Below, piece by piece: positions 22,014 to 64,000 of a stretch of DNA of 64,000 nt. The DNA is taken from assembly GCA_903831305.1 (NCBI GenBank), contig CAIKXE010000005.1, positions 11,288 through 75,287 of the forward strand, written 5' to 3'. Within the stretch, counting starts at the first letter, position 1. Each line of letters opens with the position of its first letter. The translations under genes were made by a program, and so were the position numbers. This stretch comes from an uncultured bacterium. Lineage in GTDB: Bacteria > Patescibacteriota > Minisyncoccia > Phycocordibacterales > GWA1-40-21. Under the pieces are notes generated by a model, which did not search any database, was not told the origin of the DNA, and worked only from the letters and a program-made list of their open reading frames with translations.

Positions 22014-22106
22014 TCCATAAACCGTACGAAGTCTTTGGGTCAGGAGTAGTATGATTCCGACGATTATGAGTATGAATAGGATGATTTGTATGGTTTTCAT
22101 ATTGAT

Positions 22107-22280: not shown

Positions 22281-22293
22281 ATATTAAATTTTT

Positions 22294-22470: not shown

Positions 22471-22532
22471 AGGGATATTATATCAAGGTTTTTAAATATA
22501 CAAAAGAAGTAAAAATAAATACTTTTCATACA

Positions 22533-24278
22533 TTATATTTTCCAAGCATCATTATATGCTCTTTTTGCAAGTTTTTTTGTTCTTTCGTTTATATTTTTAA
22601 TTACTTCATCAGATGTTTTCATTTTTTCATTTTTCCACTCGTTAATTAAAACTTTGACCTCAGGAAGATTTTGAATTTCCATTTCCTTAAAAGTATCAAG
22701 TTTTTCTTTAATATTTTTATTTTGTTCTGAACCATTCGTATGTTTACTTATAACCAAAAGGTTCCCTATACTATCGATGTACTCTCCAACTTCATCCTCA
22801 TTAAAATTATAATTATCCATATTTTGAGATATAAGATGATCTATATCATAATTTCTCCTAAGAAGCTTTTTGTCTGAGTTATAAATCTCAATATATTGTC
22901 CTCCTTTTCTGTCGATATTATTTAGACGATCAAAAATATAATAAATTAGATTTGAATTCAAGCCATATGTAAGTTCGGAAAACTTTTCGACAAATTCCCC
23001 TTCTTTTACCAGTTTTTCATCTCTTAATTCTTTATTAATTTTTTCAATAAAACTAATAAAATTATTTTTATTTACCTTTTCCCTACATTTGTCTGCATAG
23101 TATTTTTCTATTTGGTTCCCAGGTCTTTGGCAAATTGCGTAATTAATAAAATGAAACTTTTCTAACATATAAATAAATTCTCGGAATTTTTTTGATAATT
23201 TTTCCTTTATGTCTTTGTCATTTGTTAAGTCAATAATAGTTAAGAGTTTAACGATAAGGGGATATGCCTGTGTTACACCAAATAGCTGGAGAGCATCTAG
23301 GCTTCGATTCAAGGTTTTTGCCTCATATTCCTTCCTAAAAAAGTCATTTTTACTTTCAACTGCCCACTCCAAAATTGATTCATATGAGCAGCTAACTATT
23401 ATAGAATAAAAATATGAAAAATCCTTCATCTCAGATAATAATTTACTTGCCCCAATGTTTTCGCCATACTTTTTAAGAAGTTTAAATAATAATTTTTTTT
23501 GTACAAGCCCAAAAATAGACACATAAAAGTATTTAATCATTCGAAGAACATTTCCAGAAGAGTTTTCAATAATAGTATTCCAGTCCTCTTCTGTCTTTTT
23601 GGAATTATTATTTTGGAATAAATAGTTTTTTAATAAATCAGCGGCGTTTAATTCCATACCTCTTGCATTTGTTCTTTCAAATATATCAAATGCATCTTGT
23701 GTATCCTCAATTTCTATTTTTACAAAGGTACTTTCATATAATTTTTTCAGTAGCTCAGACAAATCATCCTTATTAAATTTTGAAATGTGCTCAATAAAAA
23801 AATCATAGAGGGGTTTAATCCTGTTTGTTTGCCTTTGTTTATTTTTTAAGTTAAAGCTTTTTCCGTCCCAGTCGTGATTAGTAATTGTCTCATTAAAAAC
23901 TTCAATGATTGATGATGAGGGTATTAGTTTTGATGAACTAGCCTTACCTGAGGTATCATCTATGAAGGAAATCTTAGACTGAATAGCAGATGCTAAATCA
24001 TGAGAGTTTAGCTTTATTGCTTGATATCTACATGCGGCTAAAAAAATAAAAATGGTCGTTATTCTTTGTTGACCATCAACTATCGAGATTTCAGCCTCTT
24101 TCTCATTATTTACGTCTAGTACTATTGTGCCTAGGAATACAGGCTCTGAAGAAACATCATCCCAAAATTCCTCTATCTGATCCTTTTTCCATTCAAAGTT
24201 TCTCTGATATTCTGGGACAACATATTTAACACTTTCATCTAGTAAACTCCTAACTTTCTTTAATTCAGATTTAATCAT
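22533..24278 (-). CDS. GmrSD-family type IV (modification-dependent) restriction endonuclease: N-terminal DUF262 (ParB/Srx-like NTPase) + C-terminal DUF1524 (His-Me finger/HNH-like nuclease)
   Basis: DUF262 motifs YQRNFEW and IVDGQQR at the N-terminus. C-terminal DIDHLISQN...GNLLVISKHTNGSEQNK fits DUF1524. Very AT-rich (~27% GC). Confidence 0.75.
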   Translation of the reverse strand: MIKSELKKVRSLLDESVKYVVPEYQRNFEWKKDQIEEFWDDVSSEPVFLGTIVLDVNNEKEAEISIVDGQQRITTIFIFLAACRYQAIKLNSHDLASAIQSKISFIDDTSGKASSSKLIPSSSIIEVFNETITNHDWDGKSFNLKNKQRQTNRIKPLYDFFIEHISKFNKDDLSELLKKLYESTFVKIEIEDTQDAFDIFERTNARGMELNAADLLKNYLFQNNNSKKTEEDWNTIIENSSGNVLRMIKYFYVSIFGLVQKKLLFKLLKKYGENIGASKLLSEMKDFSYFYSIIVSCSYESILEWAVESKNDFFRKEYEAKTLNRSLDALQLFGVTQAYPLIVKLLTIIDLTNDKDIKEKLSKKFREFIYMLEKFHFINYAICQRPGNQIEKYYADKCREKVNKNNFISFIEKINKELRDEKLVKEGEFVEKFSELTYGLNSNLIYYIFDRLNNIDRKGGQYIEIYNSDKKLLRRNYDIDHLISQNMDNYNFNEDEVGEYIDSIGNLLVISKHTNGSEQNKNIKEKLDTFKEMEIQNLPEVKVLINEWKNEKMKTSDEVIKNINERTKKLAKRAYNDAWKI

Positions 24279-34624: not shown

Positions 34625-36892
34625 TTATTTAGCTACCTGAACCGCTTCGTCAAACTGAATGGAGAGAAGCTTGGAAATACCGTCCATCCCCATGGTCACA
34701 CCATAGATGATGCCAGCTCGAGACATAGTCTCCCGATTATGGGTCACTAAAATCAGCTGTGAATATTTTGACAGCTCAGTAATCATATCACCATACTTTT
34801 TAGAGTTTGCTTCATCTAAAGCGGCATCCGTCTCATCTAGAATAATAAATGGCGGTGGGTTCACTTGTGACATAGCAAAGAGTAGAGCAATAGAAGTCAG
34901 AGCGCGTTCACCACCAGAAAGCATCATCAAGCCCTTGATCTTTTTCTTCGGCAAATTTACTTCAATATCAATTCCCTCTTCAGAAACTTCCTCCGCCTGA
35001 GTCTGATCAAAAGATTCGTCACCCAATTCTCCAACTTCTAACCCTGACAAATCTGTATCTCTTCTTTTCTTCTTTACTTCTCTAATCACAGAGAGCTTGG
35101 CTGTCCCACCGCCAAACATCTTACTAAAAAACTCTTGAAATTGCGTATTGATCTTCTCCACACCGATCTTAAACTCGGTCGTCAACTTATCATCAAGCTC
35201 CTTGATCAGAGCCTGCAAGGACACCGATGATGCACCCAAATCCACGAGCTCTTTCTCCAGAAAAGTATCGCGCTCACTGGCGTCACGGTATTCACGGAGC
35301 ACTTCATCAGAGGAACCAATACCCGCATCCTCAATCCTAATCTTTAGTCTCTCAATATTCTTACGGCGTTCTTCCTGATTTCCCCTTTCCTCGGGCATCA
35401 TTTCTAGTAGCAACTCTTTGTAACGCACTGCTTCCACCCCTACGAGCACTCCCGCCTCCGTGAGCTCCTGCTTAAAATTATTCTCGTCAGTAGTGAGTCT
35501 CTCCTCTCTGTTTTGCAAACCGGCCAGTTTAGTGTTGATTTCATTCTGCTCGGCCATAATTCTAAAAACCGCCTTCTCCGCATCACGATTAGAATCTTTT
35601 TCCTTTTCAATTTCTTCTTTGACTGAATTATACTTGGCGGTGAATTCGCTTTCTTTATTTTTAATATCAATCAATTCTTTCTCTACTTCTTCTTTGCGAA
35701 CACGAAGGGTGGCCATCTCTTGCTCGGTCTCTTTATGAGAATCATCCACCGCAGGAGCTTTATTTTCATTTATAAAATTAAGCAGGATACCCTTGATTTT
35801 ATTTAAAGTATTTTTTATTAATGACAAATCACTACTATTAGAACTAGCCTCAATCTCCTGAGAAACCAGACCAATCATGCTTTCCACGGTACTTAAATCC
35901 ACCTTTTTAGCCTCCACCGAGGTAGCGGCCTGCATCTGCTTTTTATATTGCCTATCCAAATAGCTGATCTCTCCCTCAATCCGGCCGATCTCCCGTACGA
36001 GTAAATCCTTGGATAACCTGGTCTCTCGTAACTCACTCTCCAAACGCATTATTTCATCACTTTTAACGTCCTTGCTCTCACTTCGGCTCAGGATCTCTTT
36101 AGCCTGCTTGAGCTCTTGCTCTAGACGAGCTAGCTCGGCCAAAGGCACCCGCTTTTCCTCCACTAATCTGGCCTTCTCTGCTTTGATATAGTCATCCTCA
36201 CGTTTAAAATATTCCAAATAAAAGTTCTTGAGCTGTTCCCGCATCTCAATGGTCTTCTCAATCTTCTCAACTTGTTTCTTTAGGAATTTTAAATGTGGGG
36301 CAATCTCTCGGCGCAGAGACTCTACTTGTTTTATATTTTCTTCCGTCTTAACGAGCTTACGCTGACTATCTTCCTTTTTATAATGATAGATTTTAAGACC
36401 TAAAGCATCTTCTATCATCTCTCGCCTTTCCTTGATATTGGCATTGAGGATCTTATCCGCCTCTCCTTGAGAGATAATATGATGGCCAGAAGCGCCAATA
36501 TGAGCCGAGGCTAAGAGCTCAATAATATCCTTCAGACGAACAGCTGATCCATTAATAAAATACTCACTGACAGAATCACGGTGAATCACGCGCTCTAAAG
36601 ACACCTCATCAAAATCCAAGTTAAAAATCCGGCGAGTATTATCAAACACCACCTTGGCCGAGGCGCGGTTGGCCCGGGCAGCGTCTTTACCACCGTTAAA
36701 AATCAGATCCTCTACCCTTTTGCCACGGAGAGACTTGATAGACTGCTCACCAAGGACAAAGCGAAAAGCCTCCGCCACATTGCTTTTACCAGAACCGTTT
36801 GGGCCGACGATAGAGGAAATAGGGGTATTAAAATTTAAAACGCTTTTTTTAGCGAAGGATTTAAAACCAGCCAGTTCAATACTCTTTAGCAT
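34625..36892 (-). CDS. smc: SMC-family chromosome segregation ATPase, short form (755 aa)
   Basis: N-terminal Walker A (GPNGSGKSNVAEAFRFVLGE), long coiled-coil, and C-terminal ABC signature LSGGERALTSIALLFAM plus Walker B FIILDETDAALDE. scpA and scpB are in the window. Confidence 0.75.
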   Translation of the reverse strand: MLKSIELAGFKSFAKKSVLNFNTPISSIVGPNGSGKSNVAEAFRFVLGEQSIKSLRGKRVEDLIFNGGKDAARANRASAKVVFDNTRRIFNLDFDEVSLERVIHRDSVSEYFINGSAVRLKDIIELLASAHIGASGHHIISQGEADKILNANIKERREMIEDALGLKIYHYKKEDSQRKLVKTEENIKQVESLRREIAPHLKFLKKQVEKIEKTIEMREQLKNFYLEYFKREDDYIKAEKARLVEEKRVPLAELARLEQELKQAKEILSRSESKDVKSDEIMRLESELRETRLSKDLLVREIGRIEGEISYLDRQYKKQMQAATSVEAKKVDLSTVESMIGLVSQEIEASSNSSDLSLIKNTLNKIKGILLNFINENKAPAVDDSHKETEQEMATLRVRKEEVEKELIDIKNKESEFTAKYNSVKEEIEKEKDSNRDAEKAVFRIMAEQNEINTKLAGLQNREERLTTDENNFKQELTEAGVLVGVEAVRYKELLLEMMPEERGNQEERRKNIERLKIRIEDAGIGSSDEVLREYRDASERDTFLEKELVDLGASSVSLQALIKELDDKLTTEFKIGVEKINTQFQEFFSKMFGGGTAKLSVIREVKKKRRDTDLSGLEVGELGDESFDQTQAEEVSEEGIDIEVNLPKKKIKGLMMLSGGERALTSIALLFAMSQVNPPPFIILDETDAALDEANSKKYGDMITELSKYSQLILVTHNRETMSRAGIIYGVTMGMDGISKLLSIQFDEAVQVAK

Positions 36893-36913
36893 CCATCTAT
36901 TCTAACAGATATT

Positions 36914-37228
36914 TTAATTATTCTCTAGTAGCTCATCCACAAATCTTGCAATATCATTATTTGGAGTATCAAGCTCCATCTCTGACTCAATATAGCCTTC
37001 ACCCCCTAGGGTACTGCCAATAAGCATATGCCAAAATACTAATCTTGCTGGGTTGATATTGTACGTTTTACTAATCATTGTACCAAGTTCAAAAATCTTA
37101 CTAATATCAGACTCATGTTTTTCCAGTGTTAGGAGATCCTTACCAAGCATATTATGATAGGTTTTAACCTTTTCCGTAATTTGAGAGATTTGTTCTATTC
37201 TTGAATTTGATTCTTTTATTTTTTCCAT
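36914..37228 (-). CDS. Hypothetical protein
   Basis: 104-aa ORF in an operon-like position between smc and rnc; no motifs recognised. Confidence 0.35.
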   Translation of the reverse strand: MEKIKESNSRIEQISQITEKVKTYHNMLGKDLLTLEKHESDISKIFELGTMISKTYNINPARLVFWHMLIGSTLGGEGYIESEMELDTPNNDIARFVDELLENN

Positions 37229-37237
37229 TGCCTTAAA

Positions 37238-37945
37238 TTATAACCACTTTTTAAATTCCAAAGCTTTTCTAGCGGCCACTTGCTCGGCCTCTTGCTTGGA
37301 CATACCCTCGCCCTCGGCTACTAATCTATCACCCAAATATACTCCGACAGTAAAACGTTTATCATGATCCGGTCCCTCCTCCTTGAGACTCTTATACTGT
37401 GGGGTAAGGCTTTCCTCCTCTTGGGCTTTTTCCTGGAACTGACTCTTGGCATCTATCCAGCTTTTATCCTCCACTATCTTATCTATCAAATGAAACAAAT
37501 TCTTAGAAATAAAATATTTAGACAGGTCATATCCCTGATCCAGATAGATAGCGCCGATGATGGCTTCCATAGTATTAGCTAAAATATACTGACGGGCCTT
37601 GCCGGTATCCTTAGCCTCACCCTTGGATAAAAGCAAGAAATCATTTACATTTATTTTTTGCGCGGCTTCTGACAGGGTAATGGCGTTCACCAGCGAGGCG
37701 CGGTAAGCCGTCAGATCTCCTTCATTACTATCTGGATACTTTTCAAACAAATATTCCGTCACCAGAAGCTCGAGCACAGCGTCCCCCAGAAACTCTAACC
37801 GCTCATTATGTGATGCCTCCATCCCCCGGTTCTCATTTAAATATGACCGGTGAGTAAAGGCGCGACGAAGTAACTCTTTATTCTTAAAGGTGACACCAGA
37901 AATCTCTTCAAATTTGGCAAAATCGGGAACAGACTTTTTCATCAT
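37238..37945 (-). CDS. rnc: Ribonuclease III
   Basis: RNase III signature ERLEFLGDAVLELLVTEYLF plus a C-terminal dsRBD. Confidence 0.9.
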   Translation of the reverse strand: MMKKSVPDFAKFEEISGVTFKNKELLRRAFTHRSYLNENRGMEASHNERLEFLGDAVLELLVTEYLFEKYPDSNEGDLTAYRASLVNAITLSEAAQKINVNDFLLLSKGEAKDTGKARQYILANTMEAIIGAIYLDQGYDLSKYFISKNLFHLIDKIVEDKSWIDAKSQFQEKAQEEESLTPQYKSLKEEGPDHDKRFTVGVYLGDRLVAEGEGMSKQEAEQVAARKALEFKKWL

Positions 37946-37948
37946 AAA

Positions 37949-38860
37949 TTATTGCTTTTGTGATATAAGGGTAACAGCTTTGGTAATAAAAGGCAATATA
38001 TCACCATAAGTCTTCAAATCAGCGAGCTCGGTCAATTTGAACCAGCGGGCATCATCCAAGCCACCACTATCCTTTTCCAATACCAGATCCTGATAAGGGG
38101 CCTTGGCCAAAAAATATACCACTTGCTTACGTAACTTGCCTTTTTCCGGATTATTGGCCACGTACTCATTACGACCTATCTCATCTAGCACCTCTACCTC
38201 CAGGCCGATCTCCTCTTTAATCTCCCTCCTGGTTCCTTCTATTTCACTTTCACCCGCTTCAAGCCCACCTTTAGACAGAGTCCAATAACCAAAAATATCA
38301 TGGACGAGAGCCAAGTAAAAGTTACCATCACTCTCCGCATAGACCACGCCACCGCCAAGCTTTTCCACCGGCATCTCTTCATATGGAATATCCACTATTA
38401 CTTTTTTCTTTTTCTTGGAAACGGCATTCTTATCTGGCTCACCGAGCTCTTTGTAGACCGAGCCTAGGACACCGTTTACAAACTTACTGCTTTTCTCACC
38501 ACCATAGTTTTTAGACAGCTCAATAGCCTCATTGATAGCCACCTTGGCTGGCACCTCAGCTGAATCAGAAAAAAGAAGCTCAAAAAGGCCGATACGCAAA
38601 ATATTTCTATCAATCATGGAGATCTTGTTGAGCGGCCAGTCTGGAGCGGCTTTGACAATCACTAGATCCAGCTCACTTTTTTTACTTAAAACACCTTGGA
38701 GGAGAGTCCGCACAAAAGCCAAATCCACGACATCATTGGCAAACTCTAAAGCATTACGCTCAATGATTTCCTCCGGAACCTCTAACTCAGAATACTCTCG
38801 AAAATCAAGTTCGAAGAGTGACTGAAGGACTATGGATCTTGCAATGTGCCTATTTGCCAT
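37949..38860 (-). CDS. nusB: NusB (transcription antitermination factor) fused to a C-terminal Nudix hydrolase domain
   Basis: Residues 1-~147 are NusB-like (ARSIVLQSLFELDF...VNGVLGSVYKELG). A Lys-rich linker follows, then a Nudix fold with a perfect Nudix box GGLEAGESEIEGTRREIKEEIGL (Gx5Ex7REUxEExGU). Confidence 0.7.
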   Translation of the reverse strand: MANRHIARSIVLQSLFELDFREYSELEVPEEIIERNALEFANDVVDLAFVRTLLQGVLSKKSELDLVIVKAAPDWPLNKISMIDRNILRIGLFELLFSDSAEVPAKVAINEAIELSKNYGGEKSSKFVNGVLGSVYKELGEPDKNAVSKKKKKVIVDIPYEEMPVEKLGGGVVYAESDGNFYLALVHDIFGYWTLSKGGLEAGESEIEGTRREIKEEIGLEVEVLDEIGRNEYVANNPEKGKLRKQVVYFLAKAPYQDLVLEKDSGGLDDARWFKLTELADLKTYGDILPFITKAVTLISQKQ

Positions 38861-38954
38861 TTAAATAACTTTAAATTATTAACTGGTACTAGTATACACC
38901 AAATAAAGTTGCGAAGCAAACCACCTAATTAAATAATCCGGGCTTTATTTCTAT

Positions 38955-38990
38955 TAAAAAATCTCACAATAGGCTGTGAGATCTTTTATT
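38955..38990. terminator. Intrinsic terminator hairpin downstream of rpmF
   Basis: aaaaaATCTCACA-ataggc-TGTGAGATcttttattt. Confidence 0.55.
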
Positions 38991-39216
38991 TAGCTTCGGC
39001 TTTGGACTGCGCTTTGAGTTTCTTCTCTTTCTTGACGGTTTTAGCCAGGACATCCACCACCACTCGGCCGTTATACTTACCACAATTAGCACAGACTTTA
39101 TGACTGATCCTCTTAGCTTTACAATCTGGGCAGACGGAAAGAGTCTGAGCAGTCAGAGCGTGATGTGATCTGGTCATTCCCACTCGGGAACGATTATGTC
39201 TCATATGATTTACCAT
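38986..39216 (-). CDS. rpmF: 50S ribosomal protein L32 (zinc-ribbon type)
   Basis: RSRVGMTRSHHALTA...CPDCKAKRISHKVCANCGKYNGR. Confidence 0.85.
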   Translation of the reverse strand: MVNHMRHNRSRVGMTRSHHALTAQTLSVCPDCKAKRISHKVCANCGKYNGRVVVDVLAKTVKKEKKLKAQSKAEAK

Positions 39217-39240
39217 GGCTGATATATTAGCCTATTTATT

Positions 39241-39289
39241 AAAAAAAAGCAAGACAAAAAAACAAGAGCCACCGCGCGGGCGGTGGCTC
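39241..39289 (-). terminator. Strong intrinsic terminator downstream of the first Nudix-like gene
   Basis: GAGCCACCGC-gcgg-GCGGTGGCTC with an A-run on plus (T-run on minus) at 39241-39265. Confidence 0.7.
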
Positions 39290-39296
39290 AGACAAA

Positions 39297-39818
39297 CTAG
39301 TAGGCCAAAGAAAGGCAGTCACTGACCAAGGCCGGGAAGGCCTTATAGAAGTCCCCGCCGGTGGCCTTGTCCGTCGCCATATCCACGATGATATGACCCA
39401 GAGCCGTGAGCTGAGCCGGATACAGGTCCAAGACAAACTCCTCAAGCGGGACCCAATCACAGACCAGACTATCGCTTTTACTTAGGCCGTGGCCGAGCTT
39501 CACCGTCTCCTTGGGAAACTGCCCGGGGTCAGGCAGGCTTACCCTAAGAACGAGGTAGAAATACCGCTGGTGCCCACCGTGGAGGATCACCTGGTGACAA
39601 AGCCTGGACTCCAGGATGGTCGCCCCAGACTTAAGGGCCACTTCTCGCTGTAGAGTCTCCTTGGGTACTTCCCCTCGGCCATGCCTACCACAGATGGAAT
39701 TACCTCCCAAAAACCGGTAATTCGCATAGCGGTGACTGTAGAGGCAGAGCACCTTCATCTGACTCAGGTCCTCCTCCGGCCAATCATGGATCAACCCTGC
39801 CGCATAAAAATCAGACAT
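39297..39818 (-). CDS. Nudix-fold-like protein with a degenerate Nudix box (EE replaced), hypothetical; on a GC-rich island
   Basis: GRHGRGEVPKETLQREVALKSGA fits Gx5Ex7REUx..xG but lacks the EE pair. Shares RYFYL and W(V/L)PLxEF motifs with the next ORF. GC is ~55% versus ~36% in flanks. Confidence 0.45.
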   Translation of the reverse strand: MSDFYAAGLIHDWPEEDLSQMKVLCLYSHRYANYRFLGGNSICGRHGRGEVPKETLQREVALKSGATILESRLCHQVILHGGHQRYFYLVLRVSLPDPGQFPKETVKLGHGLSKSDSLVCDWVPLEEFVLDLYPAQLTALGHIIVDMATDKATGGDFYKAFPALVSDCLSLAY

Positions 39819-39999
39819 TACATCCTTCCTTTCACTTTACCACTTCTTTAAACTGATTTCTCTCCGGAAACCATTACTCTTATCTGTTATTAACTTATAT
39901 TTTTACCTCCTTTTTGTCAATAATTTAGCAAGTTTAAACCGGCCGCTGCTACAGTGTAGTGCGCGCCGGTTTGTGGGTTCATGTGTCGTTTCGTTTGTC

Positions 40000-40572
40000 T
40001 CAGTCTTCGAGACCGAGTTCGCTTGGTTCGGGAAATTCCTCGAGGAGATCTGCAAACTCGATGCAGAACTCTAGGCCAGTTTCCCGATCACTGGCCAGCT
40101 GCGCTAGGACCGCGCCGAAGGCTAGGTGTTGGCCCCTAAAGAGTCGCTTAGCAAACTCTCTCAGGGGAAGCCAGTAACACGAGAGCACCTCAGTGCTCCC
40201 ATTTCCTGGATTCGTTTCCGTAACCTGCCGGGGCGGGGCATCCAGTGCCGGGAGGGCGGAGACCTCCTCCGCGAGGTAGAAATACCTCCGGTGCAGGCCC
40301 CCGGTCCTCCGGTTTGTCCGCTTCTCCACGAGAACGAGACGAGCCGAGATAACCTGTACCCCAGCTTCCGAATTCACCTCCCTCTTCATGGTGAGGTAGT
40401 GGGACTCGTTCCCACCGCTCGACGTGGTCTCGCCCACGCCACCCGGCATCTTCACCTCCTGGTACTTTTCGTCTTGGACACCAAGTACCATGGTGTCCTT
40501 GACCCCCTTTTTGCCACGCATGGCAATAAAGGCGGCGGCAAATGGGGCTTCCTCTTTCAGAATTTCACTCAT
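40000..40572 (-). CDS. Nudix-fold-like protein (divergent Nudix box with insertion), paralog of 39297..39818
   Basis: ESHYLTMKREVNSEAGV matches Ex7REUxxExGU, with a 3-aa insertion in the G-E spacer. RRYFYL and CYWLPLREF are shared with the neighbour. GC-rich. Confidence 0.45.
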   Translation of the reverse strand: MSEILKEEAPFAAAFIAMRGKKGVKDTMVLGVQDEKYQEVKMPGGVGETTSSGGNESHYLTMKREVNSEAGVQVISARLVLVEKRTNRRTGGLHRRYFYLAEEVSALPALDAPPRQVTETNPGNGSTEVLSCYWLPLREFAKRLFRGQHLAFGAVLAQLASDRETGLEFCIEFADLLEEFPEPSELGLED

Positions 40573-40711
40573 AGGACTCTCCTAGTTTTGTGACCTTCAA
40601 ACAATAATAGACACAATGAATTATCATGGGGCTCTTCCACCAGGGAAGGCCTAACTCATATCCTTCACAATTATACACCCAAACATATTATATGTCAAGT
40701 ATATTTAGACC

Positions 40712-41335
40712 TTAAATTAGCTTTTTCAAAAAAGTCTTACGATGCAAGGCTGAAATGCCATACTTTTTGATTGCTTCATAATGCTTTCTGGTACCGTAGC
40801 CCTTATGTTCCTCCAGTCCATAACCAGGATACTTTCGGCTCAGTTTTATCAGCAGATTATCCCGAGTGACTTTGGCCACAATGGAAGCGAGGACAATAGC
40901 CAGCTCTTTCTCATCCCCTTTAATAATAGTTTGCTGATTTTTATATTCTGCTGGCGCTCGTAATCCCCCATCTAATAAAATCTGACAGTCACTTGGTTTA
41001 ATATTTAAACTTTTCAAGCAATTCTTAAGACAATTATTTATCGCAAAAACTATCCCCTTTTTATCTATCACCTTATTGCTTTCCAAACACACCTGGTAAA
41101 TAATATTTCCTTTTTCCTTTTCGCTCTCAATTTTCTCTAGCCATTTTAATCTTTGTTTATGAGAAAGTTTTTTTGAATCCCGAAGCCTCTTTGTCCTGAG
41201 TCTTACAAGAGGACAAAATTCTATATTATTAAACCCCGGCCGAATACCCAAGGCACACACGGCCACCGGCCCCGCTATCGGCCCCCGCCCCACTTCATCT
41301 ATACCTATTTGATATTTAATTTTATTGTTTTTCAT
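40712..41335 (-). CDS. rnhB: Ribonuclease HII
   Basis: IGIDEVGRGPIAGPVAVCA and later catalytic Asp/Glu motifs. The ATG lies 3 nt inside the ORF-track TTG start. Confidence 0.85.
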   Translation of the reverse strand: MKNNKIKYQIGIDEVGRGPIAGPVAVCALGIRPGFNNIEFCPLVRLRTKRLRDSKKLSHKQRLKWLEKIESEKEKGNIIYQVCLESNKVIDKKGIVFAINNCLKNCLKSLNIKPSDCQILLDGGLRAPAEYKNQQTIIKGDEKELAIVLASIVAKVTRDNLLIKLSRKYPGYGLEEHKGYGTRKHYEAIKKYGISALHRKTFLKKLI

Positions 41336-41346
41336 CAACTAAATCA

Positions 41347-41494
41347 CACCACCTCCCCTCGCCGACCTGCTTCGCCGACTCAGCAAGACGAGCTCGGTAC
41401 TCCTCCTAAGAATAGGCGGAGATTAAAACGGAGAGTTCGGCGGGCGGCATCTCCTCCTTATTTAGGAGGAGTGGCATTCTGATGACGAGGTGGT
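41347..41494. ncRNA. GC-rich structured intergenic element (candidate small RNA or 5' leader of rnhB)
   Basis: ~150 nt at ~58% GC in an AT-rich genome. A closing stem CACCACCTC/GAGGTGGT encloses the hairpin CTCCTCC-ttattta-GGAGGAG and a second CUCCUCC tract. No ORF is present. Confidence 0.3.
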
Positions 41495-41495
41495 A

Positions 41496-41867
41496 TTATT
41501 TCTTCCCCCGTCTAAATAACTTCCAAATAATAAAAATAAGAACAATAACACCTAACCCGATACCGATAGTAGAAACAAGCCCGGACTTATACCAAGCGGG
41601 GTGAAGCTGTTTCTCAATACTCATAACATACACCGGATTGACCACCAGCCGGGTGGCCCCACCAGCCGTCACATAATAAGGGACGGTTACGGTTTTACCA
41701 TCAGCGGTGGCGGTCACATCATACTTGAGGGCATCACCTAGTTTAAAAGAAACCTCGCCAGCTTTATTCGTCACTTCCACAGCACTGGATGGAGTGATAG
41801 AGACCCGAGCCCCCTCGGTGGGCTGACCATCAGTATTCAAAACAATCACGGTTAAAATATTTTCCAT
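41496..41867 (-). CDS. Membrane-anchored protein with an N-terminal beta-sandwich (carboxypeptidase-regulatory-like) domain and C-terminal TM
   Basis: ILTVIVLNTDGQPTEGARVSI...VTATADGKTVTVPYYVTAGGATRLVV beta-rich region, then a C-terminal TM GIGLGVIVLIFIIWKLF. Directly upstream of the giant surface-protein gene. Confidence 0.4.
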   Translation of the reverse strand: MENILTVIVLNTDGQPTEGARVSITPSSAVEVTNKAGEVSFKLGDALKYDVTATADGKTVTVPYYVTAGGATRLVVNPVYVMSIEKQLHPAWYKSGLVSTIGIGLGVIVLIFIIWKLFRRGKK

Positions 41868-41893
41868 AATTTTATTATTATATTATAGCATGA

Positions 41894-44800
41894 TTAATAA
41901 ATCTCACCACGTAAACGACGCCAAATAAAGAAAACAAACCAGCCCAAAAATAAGAGCCCCGTAAAATCAATCACATACCACCATTTGCCTAAACCACTAT
42001 TCTCAATCACGACAAATGGAGCGCTCGGTGCCGGTGGATTTTCACTAGGAATAATAGTTACTTCATTTTTATTCTTAATAGGATTTGGCTCCACTGTTTC
42101 TCCTGTCCCTGGTATGACCTTGGCTGGTGTTTCAATATTCTTGGTTGGTGAAATAACATCGGTCCTAGGTACAGTGATTAATACTGGGGCCGGGGCCAAC
42201 GGTATATTTACCACTGGACTGACCGGTACCAAAACCGGCTGGTAACCACGACTACCAGTGGTGTTTGACACTCTAGTGACGGGCAAAGTAGCCGAGGTAT
42301 TATTGACTCCGCTTCGGCCCAAGGCGTTCACCGCACTAATCCTAAAATCATAACTCACATTATTTGTCAGCCCGGTTATAGTAACGGTAGTGACCACGGA
42401 CACCCCATCCGCAAAGATTGTCCACACCGCTGGTTCACTCGTCAGCTTATATTCAATCACATAATCCGTGATATCTAATCCCCCATCATCAGCTGGAGCC
42501 AGCCAAGACAAAACGACACTCGTATTCCCCGCCACCGCCGTTACGCCACTTGGGACATCCGGCACAGAAACCGGTGTCACCGAGTTTGAAGGTGGAGAGG
42601 AAGATAATCCGGTGCCGATAATATTAGTGGCGGTCATGGTGAAGGTATAGGCGGTGCCATTCGTCAGCCCGGTCACTACAATCGGCGTAGTCAGTCCGGT
42701 CCCCGTCAAACCGCCAGGGCTAGAAGTGACAGTATAATTGGTAATAGCGGTTCCACCATTGGAAGCGGGAGCGGTGAATGAAATTGTAGCCTCAGCATTA
42801 CCGGCCACGGCTGAGACCCCTGTTGGTGGATCCGGGAAGGTGGCCACGGCCGTAAAGGATGAAAAAGCATACGATGATTGCGAACCATACAAGACACTGA
42901 TATGAAAATAATATTCCCCCGGAGTCAGTACGGTAGAGGTAGCCGTAAAGTCATAATTTTCATGCGAATCAATAAGTTTGGCATTAGAAGCACCAAAAAC
43001 ATCATTCCCTCCTCCACACAGATTATCCACGGCATCCGTCACACACCAAGTATATTGATATTCATATTCCACCAAACCTTCATTGGTAATTCGAATATTT
43101 GTACCGATACTGGAGTTAGTCAAATCAGGAAAACCTTGAATAAAAACTTGGGCCGGTTCACCAGGCGTGGCACTGACCGAATCACTCACCGTACTAGTAC
43201 CAATAATATTTTTAGCACTGACCCGGAAATCATATGACGTACCGTTAGACAATCCGATCACATTGGCAAACTTATCCACGCTTTCTCCATCATCAAATGC
43301 CACCCAGCTACCGCCCGTCGTCAGCTCATACTCAATAACATAATCTGTAATAGCACTCCCGCCCGTGGAAGCCGGGTCAGACCAAGTCAAATCAATACGG
43401 CTACCTTTTACCACGGCAGCGAGATTAAGGGGGGCGCTAGGCGCCGTTGGCAAAGTGATAGCGGAGGAAGGATCAGAAGCCAGGCCGTCCCCCACATCAT
43501 TTACAGCTATCACGGTGAAAGTATAAGTGCCTCCATTGGTCAGACCAGTCATAATATGAGAAAGACCCGTTGAACTAGCATTAGAATCCGTCCCACCATT
43601 ATTGGAATAAACAGTATAGCCGGTAATGGCACTACCACCAGTGGATAAAGGCGCAGAGAAAGTTACCGTGGCCTGGGCATTACCCGCCACGGCCGTAACT
43701 CCGGTGGCCTTACCCGGCACGGTGGCTGGTGTCACGGGATTTGACGAAGTAGAAACCGGTCCATCACCAGCCACATTGGTCGCTTTCACCGTAAAAGTGT
43801 ACTCAGTACCATTGGTCAGTCCACTGATAATAATCGGCGAGGCACTACCAGTCTGAATAATTGCTTGTGGATCAGAGGTGACCGTATAGCCAGTGATTAT
43901 AGAACCACCGTCAGAAATAGGAGCCGTAAAACCAACCGTCACCTGACCATTGCCGCGTAAAACACTGGTGATGACCGGCTGACCGGGGACAGTCCTTGGC
44001 GTGCTACTTACGGGTGGATCACTTGGTGCTCCTGTCCCCGCGGAGTTATAGGCCGAAACTCGGAAGTCATATAGAGAACCATTTACCAGATCCACAACCG
44101 TAATTGTGATGGCTGGTGAGGCCGGATGACCAAACTGTGTCCAGCTTTCAGCTGTGTGCAGTTTATATTCAATAACATAATTACTAATTTCCGCCCCATT
44201 ATTGGCGGGGGCTGTCCAAGATAAATCTGCCGAGGCATTGCCTGGTGTGGCCGTAAGTCCAGAAGGGATTCCCGGCACTCCCGCCGGCGTCACCGGGCTC
44301 GAAGATACTGAGGTTTCCGAAGTACCCACCACATTGGTGGCCGTCATGGTAAAAGTATAGGGCGTGCCATTGGTCAAACCAGTCACAATGACCGGTGAAG
44401 TACTGCTTGAGCTGACAATTGATTCTGGGTCTGAGGTAACCGTATAATTGATAATTTCACTTCCCCCGTTTGTCGCCGAGTTACTTACATTCTCCTCCCC
44501 CGCCACTGCATAAAATGTCGCCGGTGAGCTTTGGTTATTATATTCGGTTTTAATCCAGTCCGCTGTACGGACAGTATTAGTTATGCGAACTTCATCGATA
44601 ATGCCGTCAAAATATCTCTCAAACGTTGCAACGTCTTGGACTCCGATTTCAAGCTTATGTGTGTGATCAGGAAGACTTCCTGAACGAGGTGTGGTGTCTA
44701 CTAATAGACCATTTTTATACAGACGTGCATTGGTACCATCATAGGTAACAACAAAATATGCTAAAACGTCTTGTGTGAGCTGACCAGCTACTGTAATCCC

Positions 44801-47800
44801 ATTTAAAACCGTGTCATCGACATCATAAACGATGCTCGTGCCAGAAGTTTGTAGCGTGTAGCCTCCGCTAGTACTGTATCCATTTTTTCCAACAATGGTG
44901 TCTCGATTAGACGCAGTGACATCATGTGGGCTTACCCAGGAGCCAAAAGTAAGCGCGGTTCCCGTGACCACTTCAGCATCACCAATGTCTATATATTTAC
45001 TGGATCCATTAAAACTCCCAGCCCCATTAATTTTTCCTGAGCTCGTTGCTGTTACTCCATGATTCGTTCCGTTATTTACACCCGTCGAATCAACCGAATT
45101 GGTCGGATCGGCCAAATGCCAAACACCTTTGAAATAACTACTACCACCATCATCCCACACTTTTTGTGAGCCGTAAGCCGAGCTTGGCGATGGCTCTGAA
45201 GTTGCCGAAGAGTTACCATAATACATATATATATCTGTATTGGCTGAAGTAGAAAGCACTGGCACTTTGACCCACGCCACCAGCGTGCCAGCTGAATATG
45301 ATTCTATTTCTCTAGCTAATTCTGTAGTGCCATTTGAATCCGTAAACCTAATATCGGTACCGTTAGCATTTATATTTGAGAGACCGGTGAGCGACACCAA
45401 AACCGGAAAATTTGTCTGATTAGTATTCGGCACCTTTGTCTTATCAATCGTAATCTTTTTTCGGTAAAGCCAAGCTTGGTTATACCACACCCCAGCAGAG
45501 GAAACGGTAGGATACGGCAGTGGTGTAAAATTCACTGTCACCTGCCGGTCACCACTTACCGCGCTAGTGATAACCGGCTTTCCGGGAATTGTTTTTGGTG
45601 TACTATTTACTAGTGGTGAACTGGGGCTTCCACTACCCACCGCATTTCTGGCCGTAATTCTAAAATCATAAGACGTACCATTGATTAATCCTGAAATTAC
45701 TGTGGCCGTAATCACGGGTGTCTCTGGGTCAGAATAAATCTGCCAGCTGGCCGGTATGTCAGAAGCGCTGGTAAGTTTGTATTCAATAATATAATCCGTA
45801 ATAGCACTGCCACCATTTGAGGCCGGTGCGGACCATAAAACAGACACTTGTCTATCTCCCGCCGTTGGTGTTACGGCTGTTGGCGCTCCAGGTACAGTGG
45901 CGGGTGTAACGCTGTTTGAAGCCGACGATGCTGGTCCCGTACCCATCACATTGGTGGCTGTCACCGTGAAAGTATAAGGGGTACCATTCGTCAGTCCAGT
46001 GACAATAATCGGTGAGGTGGTGCTGGCGCTGGTAAAACCCCCGGGGCTAGAAGTGACCGTATAAGCGGTAATCGCACTTCCCCCATTAGTGGCTGAATTT
46101 GCCACATTTTCTACTCCCGCCACCGCATAAAATGTCCCCGGCGAGCTTTGGTTATTGTATTCAGTTTTAATCCAATCCGCCGAGCGGGCGGTGTTAGATA
46201 TTTTCACTTCGTCGATGGAGCCATTGAAATAATATGAAGCAATACCTCCTATATTTAAATCAGAAGTAGTTCCTGAAAAATTACTTGCTCCGGATTTATT
46301 TGTCCATAAAACTCCATCAAGATAAATATTCATTGAATTATTTATAGAACTTGAAGTAAGAGTATAATAATGCCAGTTATTATCTGCGCAGTTTGAAGGA
46401 TTTGATTTAGATAATCTTCCATTAACAGCTGCATTACCAAAATCCCAATAAGTATTACCATTAGAATAACACGGATGAAAATTCATACGATTATTAAAAT
46501 TATCTGGATTAAGGATTAATGCAGCTTGTTGAGAAGTTTTATTCATCTTTAACCATATACCTATTGTTATTTCTGAAACTGGAGCAACATTTCCAAAGTT
46601 AGATATTTTAACATAATTCCCCGTTCCATTAAAACTCCCAGCCCCAGCGATTTGCCCTGAAGAAGTTGCTGTTACTCCATTATTCGTTCCATTATTCACT
46701 CCAGTGGAATCAGTACTTGTGGAAGCTCCCGCATTTGCCAAATGCCACACGCCTTTAAAATAATTACTCCCGCCATCATCCCAGACTTTTTGTGAACCAT
46801 AAGTCGAGCTGGGTGAAGGTTCTGAAGTTTGTGACGAGTTCCCATAATACATATAAATATCTGTATTGGCCGAAGTGGAAAGTGTAGGTACTTTTACCCA
46901 AGCCACCAGTGTACCCGCCGAATATGATTCTATTTCTCTAGCTAATTCTGTAGTTCCTGTTGAATCAGTAAATCTAATGTCTGTACCGTTAGCGTTTATA
47001 TTTGAGAGACCAGCGAGCGAGACCAAAACCGGGAAATTAGTTTGATTAGTATTCGGCACCTTTGTTTTATCTATTGTTATCTTCTTTCTATACGTCCAAC
47101 TATTGTTATACCACGGTGCAACGGAAGGGCTAGGTAGCAGGGTAAATGACACGCTAGCCTGCGCATTCCCCGCCGTCGCCGTACCAATAGTCGGCGCTCC
47201 CGGAATGGTGGCGGGTGTAGCCGTCACGGTGGCGCTCGCACTACCTTGACCAAGGGCGTTCACCGCGGACACACGGAAGTCATATGAAGTTCCATTGACC
47301 AAACCGATAATCGTAAAAGTGGTGGTGGTAGAAACCCCATCGGCATAAGTACTCCAGGTGGAAGTGGAATTTAATTTATAATCAATCACATAGTCCGTCA
47401 GTGCCAAGCCCCCGGTATTCCCCGGTGCCGTCCACAATAAACCTATTTGTGTATTCCCCGCCGTCGGCGTTAGTCCCGTCGGCGCATCCGGCACCGTCGC
47501 TGCTTCTTCTGTTGCGGATATCGCAAATGTCCCCGGCGAACTTTGATTATTGTATTCTGTCTTTATCCAATCCGCGGATCGGGCAACGCTAGAGATACGG
47601 GATTCATCAACTAGACCCAGAAAATCATAACCATTATTACTCGCGATTCTACCGATTCTTCTATAGTTATTTTTTAAATTTGCACTATTATAAGTTTCAC
47701 TTACTTTAATTACTCCATTAACGTAAAGTACGGAAGAATTTGAAGAATTATATGTCAGAACCACATGTGACCAACTACCTAATGTAGTAACTCCTGAACC

Positions 47801-48712
47801 ATAGTTCCTACCATAAAATCCTCCACCAATTGAATTTGAGGTCCCTACTTGTGCACCCTGAACTGTTCCAATATATGCCGATTGATTAGGTGATGAATCA
47901 CCAATAGATATAGCGCCAGAATATTTACTAACCGTAGCTGTATTAATCCATGCACTTAATGTAAACGAACTTGCACCAAGTATTGAATTGATTCCTGTGT
48001 CAATGTAATCCCCATCATTGGCAAAAGCAGCACCAGCAATTTGTCCTGACGAAGTTGCAGTTACACCATTATTCGTCCCATTGTTTCCATTACTTGTAGA
48101 ATCTGTGCTAGTTGAATTACCAGCATCAGACAAATGCCACACGCCTTTAAAATAATTACTTCCGCCATCGTCCCAAACCCCCGTAGCGACCGAGGTGGCG
48201 GGAGTGGAGGCCGAGGCGTTTCCATAATACATATAGATATCGGTGTCGGTCGTGGTAGCTAGTGAAGGTATCTTTACCCAAGACACCAGCTCACCAGTGG
48301 ATGACGCATATTTTTCTATCTCATAATTCAGGGCTGTCGTGCCATCAGCGGAAGTAAACAAAATATCCGCCCCGGTGCTCGTCCCCACATGCCCACCAGA
48401 AAATGAAGTGTATTTCAAAGCGGTGGTCGTCGTACTCACCAGCACCGGAAAATTAGTCAAAAGCGTCCCCGTAGAGCTAGCCACCTTAGTATGATCAATA
48501 GTAATTTTAGTTCGGTAACCCCATGCATCATTATACCAGCCAGTTTCCGCATACACCGTACTTATCTGCGTACCCAAAAAAGTAATTATAAGGAAAACAA
48601 ATACGCCACAAACTCTGTAAAGTCCTCTCTCCGCCACAGTCTTGTTTTTTTTATTAAAATTAAAAAACCAAACATGCATTACGGTTTTATTATACCATAT
48701 CTCCCCACCCAA
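41894..48712 (-). CDS. Giant (2272 aa) modular cell-surface protein: signal peptide, 3x [DUF2341-like beta-sandwich + LamG/concanavalin-like + tandem fibronectin type III], further FN3 repeats, C-terminal TM anchor
   Basis: The motif W..W.YRKKITID..KV...NFPVLVS occurs three times (DUF2341-like). DEVRISNTARSADWIKTEYNNQSSPGTF is a LamG-like jelly-roll C-terminus. There are many ~90-aa FN3-like repeats with conserved W, Y and TNG.SY.F.V.A.N positions. The C-terminus is LGWFVFFIWRRL. Confidence 0.8.
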   Translation of the reverse strand: MGGEIWYNKTVMHVWFFNFNKKNKTVAERGLYRVCGVFVFLIITFLGTQISTVYAETGWYNDAWGYRTKITIDHTKVASSTGTLLTNFPVLVSTTTTALKYTSFSGGHVGTSTGADILFTSADGTTALNYEIEKYASSTGELVSWVKIPSLATTTDTDIYMYYGNASASTPATSVATGVWDDGGSNYFKGVWHLSDAGNSTSTDSTSNGNNGTNNGVTATSSGQIAGAAFANDGDYIDTGINSILGASSFTLSAWINTATVSKYSGAISIGDSSPNQSAYIGTVQGAQVGTSNSIGGGFYGRNYGSGVTTLGSWSHVVLTYNSSNSSVLYVNGVIKVSETYNSANLKNNYRRIGRIASNNGYDFLGLVDESRISSVARSADWIKTEYNNQSSPGTFAISATEEAATVPDAPTGLTPTAGNTQIGLLWTAPGNTGGLALTDYVIDYKLNSTSTWSTYADGVSTTTTFTIIGLVNGTSYDFRVSAVNALGQGSASATVTATPATIPGAPTIGTATAGNAQASVSFTLLPSPSVAPWYNNSWTYRKKITIDKTKVPNTNQTNFPVLVSLAGLSNINANGTDIRFTDSTGTTELAREIESYSAGTLVAWVKVPTLSTSANTDIYMYYGNSSQTSEPSPSSTYGSQKVWDDGGSNYFKGVWHLANAGASTSTDSTGVNNGTNNGVTATSSGQIAGAGSFNGTGNYVKISNFGNVAPVSEITIGIWLKMNKTSQQAALILNPDNFNNRMNFHPCYSNGNTYWDFGNAAVNGRLSKSNPSNCADNNWHYYTLTSSSINNSMNIYLDGVLWTNKSGASNFSGTTSDLNIGGIASYYFNGSIDEVKISNTARSADWIKTEYNNQSSPGTFYAVAGVENVANSATNGGSAITAYTVTSSPGGFTSASTTSPIIVTGLTNGTPYTFTVTATNVMGTGPASSASNSVTPATVPGAPTAVTPTAGDRQVSVLWSAPASNGGSAITDYIIEYKLTSASDIPASWQIYSDPETPVITATVISGLINGTSYDFRITARNAVGSGSPSSPLVNSTPKTIPGKPVITSAVSGDRQVTVNFTPLPYPTVSSAGVWYNQAWLYRKKITIDKTKVPNTNQTNFPVLVSLTGLSNINANGTDIRFTDSNGTTELAREIESYSAGTLVAWVKVPVLSTSANTDIYMYYGNSSATSEPSPSSAYGSQKVWDDGGSSYFKGVWHLADPTNSVDSTGVNNGTNHGVTATSSGKINGAGSFNGSSKYIDIGDAEVVTGTALTFGSWVSPHDVTASNRDTIVGKNGYSTSGGYTLQTSGTSIVYDVDDTVLNGITVAGQLTQDVLAYFVVTYDGTNARLYKNGLLVDTTPRSGSLPDHTHKLEIGVQDVATFERYFDGIIDEVRITNTVRTADWIKTEYNNQSSPATFYAVAGEENVSNSATNGGSEIINYTVTSDPESIVSSSSTSPVIVTGLTNGTPYTFTMTATNVVGTSETSVSSSPVTPAGVPGIPSGLTATPGNASADLSWTAPANNGAEISNYVIEYKLHTAESWTQFGHPASPAITITVVDLVNGSLYDFRVSAYNSAGTGAPSDPPVSSTPRTVPGQPVITSVLRGNGQVTVGFTAPISDGGSIITGYTVTSDPQAIIQTGSASPIIISGLTNGTEYTFTVKATNVAGDGPVSTSSNPVTPATVPGKATGVTAVAGNAQATVTFSAPLSTGGSAITGYTVYSNNGGTDSNASSTGLSHIMTGLTNGGTYTFTVIAVNDVGDGLASDPSSAITLPTAPSAPLNLAAVVKGSRIDLTWSDPASTGGSAITDYVIEYELTTGGSWVAFDDGESVDKFANVIGLSNGTSYDFRVSAKNIIGTSTVSDSVSATPGEPAQVFIQGFPDLTNSSIGTNIRITNEGLVEYEYQYTWCVTDAVDNLCGGGNDVFGASNAKLIDSHENYDFTATSTVLTPGEYYFHISVLYGSQSSYAFSSFTAVATFPDPPTGVSAVAGNAEATISFTAPASNGGTAITNYTVTSSPGGLTGTGLTTPIVVTGLTNGTAYTFTMTATNIIGTGLSSSPPSNSVTPVSVPDVPSGVTAVAGNTSVVLSWLAPADDGGLDITDYVIEYKLTSEPAVWTIFADGVSVVTTVTITGLTNNVSYDFRISAVNALGRSGVNNTSATLPVTRVSNTTGSRGYQPVLVPVSPVVNIPLAPAPVLITVPRTDVISPTKNIETPAKVIPGTGETVEPNPIKNKNEVTIIPSENPPAPSAPFVVIENSGLGKWWYVIDFTGLLFLGWFVFFIWRRLRGEIY

Positions 48713-58031: not shown

Positions 58032-58040
58032 TGTTCAATT

Positions 58041-63557: not shown

Positions 63558-63559
63558 AT

Positions 63560-63964: not shown

Positions 63965-64000
63965 TGATTTATTCCTTGAACAATCTTGAAGATCAAGGAA

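Follow-up and report, generated by a model that had tools for sequence, protein, structure and literature searches.

A 64-kb window (the whole stretch of DNA analysed) of contig CAIKXE010000005.1, from an uncultured bacterium of the Minisyncoccia, carries on its minus strand a gene that joins the antitermination factor NusB to a Nudix hydrolase domain (nusB::nudix), together with two open reading frames (ORFs), ORF-B and ORF-A, which encode paralogous proteins related to Nudix hydrolases. The locus is best described as a class-wide NusB–Nudix fusion flanked by a rare, position-locked MutT-like subfamily, represented here by a duplicate pair of which B is probably an enzyme and A a pseudo-enzyme. 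It belongs to a conserved block of Paceibacteria with the order rnhB–[Nudix slot]–rpmF–nusB::nudix–rnc–...–smc, in which the identities of rnhB, rpmF, rnc and smc are unambiguous (Pfam, NCBIfam). In related genomes, rnc adjoins the fusion gene in 85/85 loci, the position of rpmF is kept in 78/88, and rnhB is found upstream of the slot in 75/88.

The NusB–Nudix Fusion Is the Standard NusB of Paceibacteria

The N-terminal half of the 303-aa fusion protein scored 111.6 bits with Pfam NusB (cutoff 23.1; residues 6–137) and 123.5 bits with the NCBIfam nusB equivalog model TIGR01951 (cutoff 88.35; residues 4–138), while its C-terminal half scored 54.8 bits with Pfam NUDIX (cutoff 21.1; residues 190–283). 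All catalytic box residues are present in the Nudix box, G198-x5-E204-x7-R212-E213-I-K-E216-E217-I-G219-L, which follows the canonical GX5EX7REUXEEXGU pattern and is the sole canonical Nudix box within the window. The linker between the two halves contains the motif SKKKKKV; its mean identity across the family is 70%. Thus, the gene is what an initial annotation, made from the letters of the window, had taken it for: a full NusB domain joined by a Lys-rich linker to a Nudix domain that has a textbook box and passes the Nudix profile threshold. Its position directly upstream of rnc, which starts 3 nt past the fusion stop codon, was also as described, and all three ORFs of interest were present, on the minus strand, where they had been placed.

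The same annotation had proposed a search for NusB–Nudix fusions in other Patescibacteria, and they proved to be common: no fewer than 120 protein clusters, and the genomes of 80 or more species, contain one. The best 120 of the clusters (65–97% identity; one is named from 'Candidatus Taylorbacteria') all carry both PF01029 and PF00293. A scan of species-representative genomes gave 569 stretches confirmed by tblastn, and in the best 80 of these 569, which were analysed as loci, the fusion matched over the full protein length (80/80). The hosts are Paceibacteria/Parcubacteria (Minisyncoccia in NCBI). The NusB–Nudix fusion is the standard NusB of Paceibacteria. NusB is a core rRNA antitermination factor; this permanent, class-wide fusion has no description in the searchable literature, in which nothing relevant on Nudix proteins in Patescibacteria was found either, and public sources name the protein merely 'N utilization substance protein B'.

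Among sequences with solved structures, the closest to the fused Nudix domain were hydrolases of diadenosine tetraphosphate (Ap4A): Aquifex aq_158 (3I7U, E=1.7e-7), followed by Thermus Ndx1, NUDT2 and Chlamydia CT771. With these Ap4A/ApnA hydrolases it has in common a W-x-x-[P/S]-K-G-x-x-E-x-G-E ... RE-x2-EE box and a conserved tyrosine downstream. Another Nudix enzyme, RppH, strips 5'-PPP and Np4 caps off RNA (PMC8833179). The RppH equivalog test of the fusion was negative, the best NCBIfam model, NF001936, giving 28.7 bits against a cutoff of 118 and matching the box region only; despite this sub-cutoff score, the fused domain may work like RppH. The coupling of rRNA antitermination and processing to RppH-like 5'-end pyrophosphohydrolysis, suggested by the initial annotation, is accordingly a hypothesis. 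It differs from both the Ap4A/ApnA hydrolases and RppH in being joined to NusB and in the variability of its RE glutamate across the fusion family.

The NusB half was also matched by NCBIfam RsmB models (residues 7–168), which makes RsmB a precedent for the fusion of a NusB-like domain to an rRNA-directed enzyme. In RsmB, the 16S rRNA m5C967 methyltransferase, a NusB-like N-terminal RNA-binding domain is likewise attached to such an enzyme, but the partner domain is a methyltransferase and not a Nudix hydrolase. The N-terminal half of the fusion is a full-length NusB equivalog, and the fusion would seem to be the organism's sole NusB and not a paralog, as read from the 64-kb window. Neither an rRNA operon nor a BoxA, the RNA element that NusB binds along with ribosomal protein S10 in the rRNA antitermination complex, was found within the window. 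PADLOC weakly matched the fusion to PDC-S07 through the generic Nudix domain.

In the fused Nudix domains of the 80 species, conservation is 80/80 for W193, K197, Y233 and R244, and 79/80 for E217 and for E232. The RE glutamate, E213, is kept in 39/80 species, its replacements being K, A, V, G, S and I, and all four box glutamates (E204, E213, E216 and E217) are kept in 37/80. A universally conserved role of the fusion in hydrolysis through the canonical base is therefore excluded, and the family as a whole does not require a textbook box.

A Rare MutT-like Subfamily Is Locked to the rnhB–rpmF Slot

Relatives of ORF-B are few: a word-indexed search of 5.8 billion proteins returned 9, and an exhaustive profile search of 1.84 billion representatives yielded 59 representatives at E<=1e-3. 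All members of this slot family whose genomic context was readable are encoded in the interval from rnhB to rpmF, shortly ahead of nusB::nudix and rnc. This position was read in P0001, P0004, P0008, P0009, P0149, P0135, P0155, P0161, P0189, P0132 and L099, and in the reference loci L009, L016, L037, L038, L066 and L075 (L-numbers denote related genome loci and P-numbers family members or contigs; P0134 is L091). The same slot is occupied by the same subfamily in at least 15 divergent lineages, down to about 24% protein identity, and no members were found in viral contigs (IMG/VR). This MutT-like Nudix subfamily is very small, confined to Paceibacteria and, wherever the context was readable, seen solely in the rnhB–rpmF slot.

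Most members have a canonical RE-x2-EE box, and distant canonical-box members pass Pfam NUDIX with 31.7 and 27.5 bits. A divergent 'x-type' in the slot of L010, L039 and L052 is related to the family (hhalign probability 95.8%), and L038 and L066 bridge it to the remaining members. Among 61 reference loci in which the slot could be measured, the rnhB–rpmF gap ranges from 24 to 1826 bp, and 9/61 hold a family member; a six-frame profile search of 42 mid-sized slots revealed no decayed remnants of the family. A metagenome scan with the B-clade alignment found one locus, L099, and a scan with the A-clade alignment no further A-type loci.

Other occupants of the slot are a Bro-N protein (L054), an APH-family kinase (L081) and hypothetical proteins, and in L094 a Y1 transposase gene (2517–3215) lies immediately upstream of rnhB. 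This unrelated cargo and the nearby transposase indicate that the rnhB–rpmF neighbourhood tolerates insertions.

The best matches of the slot-family profile were 7SYC, an 8-oxo-GTPase (E=6.5e-10), and E. coli MutT (1MUT, E=2.4e-9). The NCBIfam MutT models (TIGR00586/NF008044) gave sub-threshold matches in 15/32 members, the best at E=8.5e-7, and none to B or A. MutT is thus the nearest known kind, but with scores below the equivalog cutoff, the slot proteins are not MutT members. They resemble MutT/MTH1-type 8-oxo-(d)GTP pyrophosphohydrolases in the Nudix fold and, in most members, in the canonical GX5EX7REUXEEXGU box, and the replication and repair neighbours of the slot (rnhB, often dnaE) would fit nucleotide-pool cleaning. 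Unlike MutT, the slot family has a C-terminal three-helix extension, invariant K41, H94 and W134, and a longer G..E loop, and is position-locked beside rpmF and nusB; additionally, the window's clade has a serine fixed at the first EE glutamate. An origin of B and A by local duplication of the fused Nudix domain was rejected (hhalign probability just 38%, 17% identity): the fused domain resembles the slot family no more than other Nudix proteins do, which excludes a recent local duplication.

ORF-B Has a Clade-Specific Nudix Box, and ORF-A Has Lost the EE Pair

ORF-A and ORF-B are paralogs (BLASTP, 28% identity, E=7e-21) with the motifs H-x-RYFYL and W-x-P in common. ORF-B reached 19.2 bits with Pfam NUDIX, just under the cutoff of 21.1, and ORF-A had no Pfam match. 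Both were modelled by AlphaFold2 with high predicted local distance difference test (pLDDT) scores, 91.6 for ORF-B and 88.9 for ORF-A, as a Nudix alpha/beta/alpha core with a C-terminal three-helix extension. Foldseek retrieved 245 PDB matches at E<=1e-3 with the model of ORF-B and 192 with that of ORF-A, and the best 50 listed were all Nudix-family in each case. By its predicted fold and its variant box, ORF-B can be placed in the Nudix superfamily. ORF-A has the fold, but REVALK stands in place of the catalytic REx2EE; by descent and fold it belongs to the Nudix superfamily, and its motif marks it as a pseudo-enzyme.

The box residues of ORF-B are E56, R64, E65, S68 and E69, plus E48 and a longer G..E loop. 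The box thus reads RE-VN-SE with a loop insertion; in ORF-A it reads RE-VA-LK, the EE pair is gone, and the equivalent of E48 is I. In the B clade (13 sequences, 49–86% identical to B), RE-x2-SE is invariant, accompanied by E48 and a G..E loop of 13–14 residues. Because of this invariance, the B-clade box must be regarded as a fixed variant and not as random decay. ORF-B keeps the equivalents of MutT E44, E53 and E57, and the substituted position corresponds to MutT E56. The latter, the first glutamate of the EE pair, reportedly tolerates substitution far better than E53 and E57, although our search found no source for this. Judged by its box, ORF-B is probably active. In the A clade (the window, L008 and P0134), [L/F]-K is found instead of EE, and in P0134 RE is also changed to RA; by the same kind of evidence, ORF-A is very probably inactive.

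ORF-A shares with the B clade the derived loop length, P136 and Q148, and hence arose from a B-type gene. In comparison with the L008 orthologs, the ratio of nonsynonymous to synonymous differences (pN/pS) was about 0.20 for B, about 0.30 for A and 0.25 for rnhB, with pN of 0.15, 0.22 and 0.16, respectively, and with synonymous sites saturated in B and A (pS 0.72–0.75). As the pN of ORF-A is low and comparable to that of rnhB, ORF-A is a maintained protein, not a decaying pseudogene, and since purifying selection persists despite the loss of EE, it is a pseudo-Nudix. Taken together, these results bear out the earlier claims that the two proteins are paralogs with shared motifs, that they have Nudix folds, and that their boxes are degenerate, one without EE and the other with an insertion. 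The suggestion that they are inactive pseudo-enzymes holds for A alone: the box of B is fixed in its clade, and B is probably active.

Both ORFs are preceded by Shine–Dalgarno sequences. The idea that the GC-rich stretch encodes a structured RNA instead of genes was ruled out by the purifying selection, the confident folds and the lack of Rfam matches: none was obtained for 36500–42000 under permissive settings or for the whole window at gathering thresholds. No tRNAs were found in the GC-rich region.

The B+A pair was seen in the window, L008 and L091 only, and farther out in the B clade (L006, L099, L100 and the P0008 contig) just one copy is found; ORF-A is a tandem duplicate specific to the window's sublineage. 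Degenerate downstream second copies also occur in L075, L037 and L094. No mutual similarity was detectable among A, L075b, L037b and L094b, and therefore the combination of an upstream box-bearing copy with a downstream degenerate one arose at least two times; we estimate between 2 and 4 independent origins. Three Nudix folds within 2.7 kb, which had been considered unusual, are thus an arrangement that recurs in the clade. The subfamily offers a natural series of apparently active, variant and dead Nudix paralogs.

Nudix modules that bind ligands without the metal-binding glutamates are represented by the NrtR effector domain, TRPM2 NUDT9H and the MutY C-terminal domain. ORF-A likewise keeps the fold without these glutamates, and the NrtR Nudix domain is among its structural matches (3gz8, TMq 0.56). 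In contrast to those modules, ORF-A is stand-alone, with no DNA-binding or channel domain, and is a tandem duplicate of what appears to be an active enzyme.

Two minor features of the pair were recorded. The 23-nt stretches encoding H-x-RYFYL (39551–39573 and 40272–40294) are 91% identical between A and B, the proteins being 28% identical overall; this could reflect strong codon-level constraint or a small gene-conversion tract. A long antisense ORF (155–165 aa) runs across ORF-B, in the window at 40126–40593 (plus strand) and in L099 at 343–840 (minus strand). It is most likely not a gene but a by-product of GC-rich codon usage that avoids TTA, CTA and TCA.

Slot Occupancy Coincides with a Complete Box in the Fused Nudix

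All four glutamates (E204, E213, E216 and E217) are present in the fused Nudix domain of 16/16 slot-positive loci, as compared with 23/52 slot-negative ones (Fisher p=0.002). The fusions compared were those of L009–L088 and of the window; the slot-positive set of 16 includes the window, and the slot-negative set consists of reference loci. When the fusion proteins were collapsed into clusters by the unweighted pair group method with arithmetic mean (UPGMA), with the box columns left out of the distances, the box was complete in 9/9 clusters with a slot-positive genome versus 8/18 purely slot-negative ones (p about 0.005). Losses of E213 are independent and scattered over many clades, and none occurred in a slot-positive genome. 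Correlative as it is, this co-retention is the strongest argument for a common pathway of the neighbouring Nudix genes and suggests that they work together; the slot subfamily thereby provides a signal tying two Nudix enzymes functionally.

The GC Excess of the Slot Genes Is Sustained

The guanine plus cytosine (GC) content is 55.9% in ORF-A and 58.1% in ORF-B, and their region holds the highest-GC 500-nt windows of the 64 kb, in which GC averages 41.0% (sd 5.5%, 500-nt windows). The initial annotation had reported a GC-rich island. The A/B stretch is indeed the GC-richest of the window, but the interval 39240–40700 has 52.8% GC, and the background is 41.0%, not about 36%. The excess lies mainly in third codon positions, where GC (GC3) is 0.68 in ORF-A and 0.67 in ORF-B versus 0.37–0.47 in the neighbours.

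Four further AT-rich hosts (L008, L006, L099 and L100) showed the same contrast for their B-clade genes; in them, the proteins are 50–78% identical to B and synonymous sites are saturated. Since the GC3 excess persists across such relatives, it represents a sustained bias and not a fading recent import. Over 17 loci, 19/22 slot genes were GC-richer than the flanking genes, with a large excess in the AT-rich hosts and one of about zero where the host is GC-rich. GC-biased conversion at a recombination-prone slot, repeated import of alleles and selection on mRNA are the candidate causes, and a slot gene with GC-rich synonymous sites in AT-rich genomes is a test case for distinguishing GC-biased conversion from selection.

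No flanking direct or inverted repeats were detected around the A/B unit, the only PHROG match for the A/B region was insignificant (E=0.19), and neither A nor B had a PADLOC match. A mobile element was ruled out by the lack of repeats, of a meaningful PHROG match and of IMG/VR members. A recently acquired genomic island was also rejected; the composition is atypical, but the same family is found at the same site in relatives, with no repeats and no viral matches. The earlier proposal that the pair was laterally acquired is therefore not supported, in view of the occupation of the same slot in at least 15 lineages, the absence of repeats and of viral or defence matches, and the persistent GC3 excess. 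Likewise, the island is not absent from close relatives, a point that had been put forward for checking: the same subfamily is found in them at the same site.

Markedly low GC values were recorded in other parts of the window, at 22001–24000 (27.8%) and 58001–64000 (31–35%), as compared with the 41% average.

A Possible Mechanism and Its Alternatives

As a description, the account of the locus given above is very likely correct. The mechanism that we attach to it is tentative, and description and mechanism taken as one explanation are somewhat favoured. ORF-B would be an active nucleoside-polyphosphate pyrophosphohydrolase of the MutT type, and ORF-A would be a partner or regulatory subunit that binds the same kind of ligand, or B itself, without hydrolysis. 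The NusB domain would take the fused Nudix domain to BoxA-bearing nascent rRNA and RNA polymerase, where the latter domain could act on a 5'-terminal oligophosphate, an Np4 cap or nucleotides of the ApnA type; it would work ahead of RNase III and share a pathway with the slot enzyme. By such a fusion, these ultra-small bacteria would physically bring the pyrophosphohydrolysis of nucleotides or of RNA 5' ends to the complex that transcribes rRNA. A bolder version, which we think unlikely, is that the NusB-tethered Nudix and the slot Nudix (with the dead paralog where present) form one co-dependent module deprotecting the nascent rRNA 5' end co-transcriptionally, for example in two steps, PPP to PP to P, or by Np4 decapping. 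If true, Paceibacteria would couple antitermination with both RNase III and maturation that depends on the 5' end; we know of no bacterium in which antitermination, 5'-end deprotection and RNase III maturation are so linked.

A different explanation, rather doubtful in our judgement, is that the rnhB–rpmF gap is a recombination or insertion hotspot in which Paceibacteria lineages again and again take up or exchange Nudix alleles, for example those of GC-rich donors or accompanied by GC-biased gene conversion. In this case, B and A would be accessory cargo functionally unconnected to nusB::nudix. It would account for the composition of the genes (GC +0.14 to +0.16 and GC3 +0.24 to +0.25 over the flanking genes), for their patchy occurrence (9/61 reference loci), and for the presence of three deeply diverged subtypes (B-type, canonical type and x-type) in one close host clade. 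The B proteins of L100 and L008, hosts at a similar distance, are 51% and 78% identical to the window's; some genomes have unrelated cargo in the slot (Bro-N, APH kinase, hypotheticals), and the B–A unit has its own promoter and terminator. However, the same rare Nudix family occurs in at least 15 lineages and was seen nowhere else, flanking repeats and viral-contig matches are lacking, and no integrase was called beside the slot in the window or in most related loci, the Y1 transposase of L094 being the exception. Moreover, perfect co-retention with a complete fused Nudix is hard to square with unrelated cargo. The patchiness, the fast divergence and the recurring tandem duplication with dead paralogs, in a variable slot that in L054 holds a Bro-N gene, would also be compatible with a conflict system, i.e., a two-gene module in a variable island, directed against phages or mobile elements and composed of a nucleotide-depleting or signal-degrading Nudix and a sensor pseudo-enzyme; the strong autonomous promoter would suit it as well. 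We consider this highly improbable, because A and B have no PADLOC match, the region's sole PHROG match is the insignificant one and IMG/VR contains no relatives, and because most lineages have a single gene and not a pair, with strictly housekeeping neighbours and a position locked across the class.

The pair had also been suggested to process NAD or ADP-ribose, and the automatic JGI label of the slot protein, ADP-ribose pyrophosphatase YjhB (NUDIX family), says much the same. ADP-ribose pyrophosphatases and the NrtR Nudix are among the structural matches, with similar E-values. Nevertheless, this function is very unlikely for B and A, since the characterised proteins closest to them by profile are 8-oxo-(d)GTPases of the MutT type: profile searches put MutT and diphosphoinositol-polyphosphate phosphohydrolases first, ADP-ribose pyrophosphatases are absent from the top sequence matches, and NCBIfam points to MutT, with no NudF or NudE matches. 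Additionally, B has no proline about 15–16 residues past its box, a motif that is said to mark ADP-ribose pyrophosphatases. The favoured explanation, a class-wide fusion with a functionally linked MutT-like slot enzyme, itself faces several difficulties. The resemblance to MutT is weak, under every NCBIfam cutoff, ORF-B itself misses the Pfam NUDIX threshold, and Foldseek scores many Nudix subfamilies about alike (template modelling score about 0.55), MTH1 entries dominating the PDB. The co-retention test is a crude UPGMA collapse and not a proper phylogenetic comparative method. With E213 missing in about half of the species, the core function conserved in the fusion may be something other than hydrolysis. 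Finally, where fusion proteins are about 80% identical, identity between the slot proteins is as low as 52% (L006) or about 28% (L009), and L010 has a different subtype; as the divergence of slot proteins does not track that of their hosts, allele replacement or horizontal exchange in the slot is possible.

The B–A Unit Has Its Own Predicted Promoter and Terminator

Ahead of ORF-B lies the sole 12/12 match to the sigma-70 consensus in 36800–41600, which is kept in L008 with the first part of the leader. The strong terminator predicted after ORF-A has a 10-bp stem with 8 GC pairs, and the stem is kept in L008 too. By these elements, the B–A unit has a perfect sigma-70 promoter and a terminator of its own.

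The spacer between B and A is 83% identical to that of L008 (L008 1417–1596), beyond the surrounding coding DNA, in this comparison of n=2 sequences. It contains a hairpin past the B stop codon (39936–39972, AAACCGGC...GCCGGTTT) and a conserved leader (about 39850–39878, AGTAATGGTTTCCGGAGAGAAATCAGTTT), and its RNA is predicted to fold with -37.5 kcal/mol (z=-2.3). A promoter-like TTGACA-15-TATAAG at 39894–39920, unscored by the promoter scan, would be weak, since the 15-nt spacing is suboptimal. The spacer may act as a regulatory RNA or an operator.

Features of the Locus and Its Surroundings

The features of the locus are compiled in Table 1. Downstream of rnc, a 104-aa ORF is followed by smc (minus strand).

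Table 1. Features of the rnhB–rnc region, listed in the direction of transcription (window coordinates).
Feature	Position	Strand	Remarks
rnhB (RNase HII)	40712–41338	minus	Pfam RNase_HII, 116.4 bits; upstream boundary of the variable slot
Predicted sigma-70 promoter for ORF-B, TTGACA-17-TATAAT	40670–40698	minus	12/12 consensus match
Leader between promoter and ORF-B, about 90 nt	40573–40669	minus	
ORF-B, 190 aa, MutT-like Nudix	40000–40572	minus	Box region 40357–40443
B–A spacer, 181 nt	39819–39999	minus	Hairpin, promoter-like element, leader
ORF-A, 173 aa, pseudo-Nudix	39297–39818	minus	Box region 39621–39707
Predicted intrinsic terminator after ORF-A	39266–39289	minus	GAGCCACCGCCCGCGCGGTGGCTC then T-run
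rpmF (ribosomal protein L32)	38986–39216	minus	Pfam Ribosomal_L32p, 51.9 bits; downstream slot boundary
NusB domain of the fusion, aa 1–140	38441–38860	minus	Pfam NusB, TIGR01951
Lys-rich linker of the fusion, aa 141–168	38357–38440	minus	Read from the sequence
Nudix domain of the fusion, aa 169–303 and stop codon	37949–38356	minus	Pfam NUDIX; ApnA-hydrolase-like
Canonical Nudix box of the fusion, GGLEAGESEIEGTRREIKEEIGL	38201–38269	minus	
rnc (RNase III)	37238–37945	minus	TIGR02191, 252.4 bits

Just past rpmF (38955–38988) we observed an AT-rich hairpin with a T-run, followed, ahead of nusB::nudix, by a promoter-like TTGCTT-17-TATACT with an extended -10 TG. The hairpin and the promoter-like site between them suggest that rpmF and the nusB::nudix–rnc operon are transcribed partly independently.

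On the other side of the slot, a giant ORF of 2272 aa (41894–48712, minus strand) encodes what is probably a surface protein, with repeated DUF2341, Laminin_G_3 and fn3 modules and a C-terminal hydrophobic segment. Next comes a CarboxypepD_reg-like membrane protein of 123 aa (41496–41867), and both are kept upstream of rnhB in the close relatives L001 and L100.

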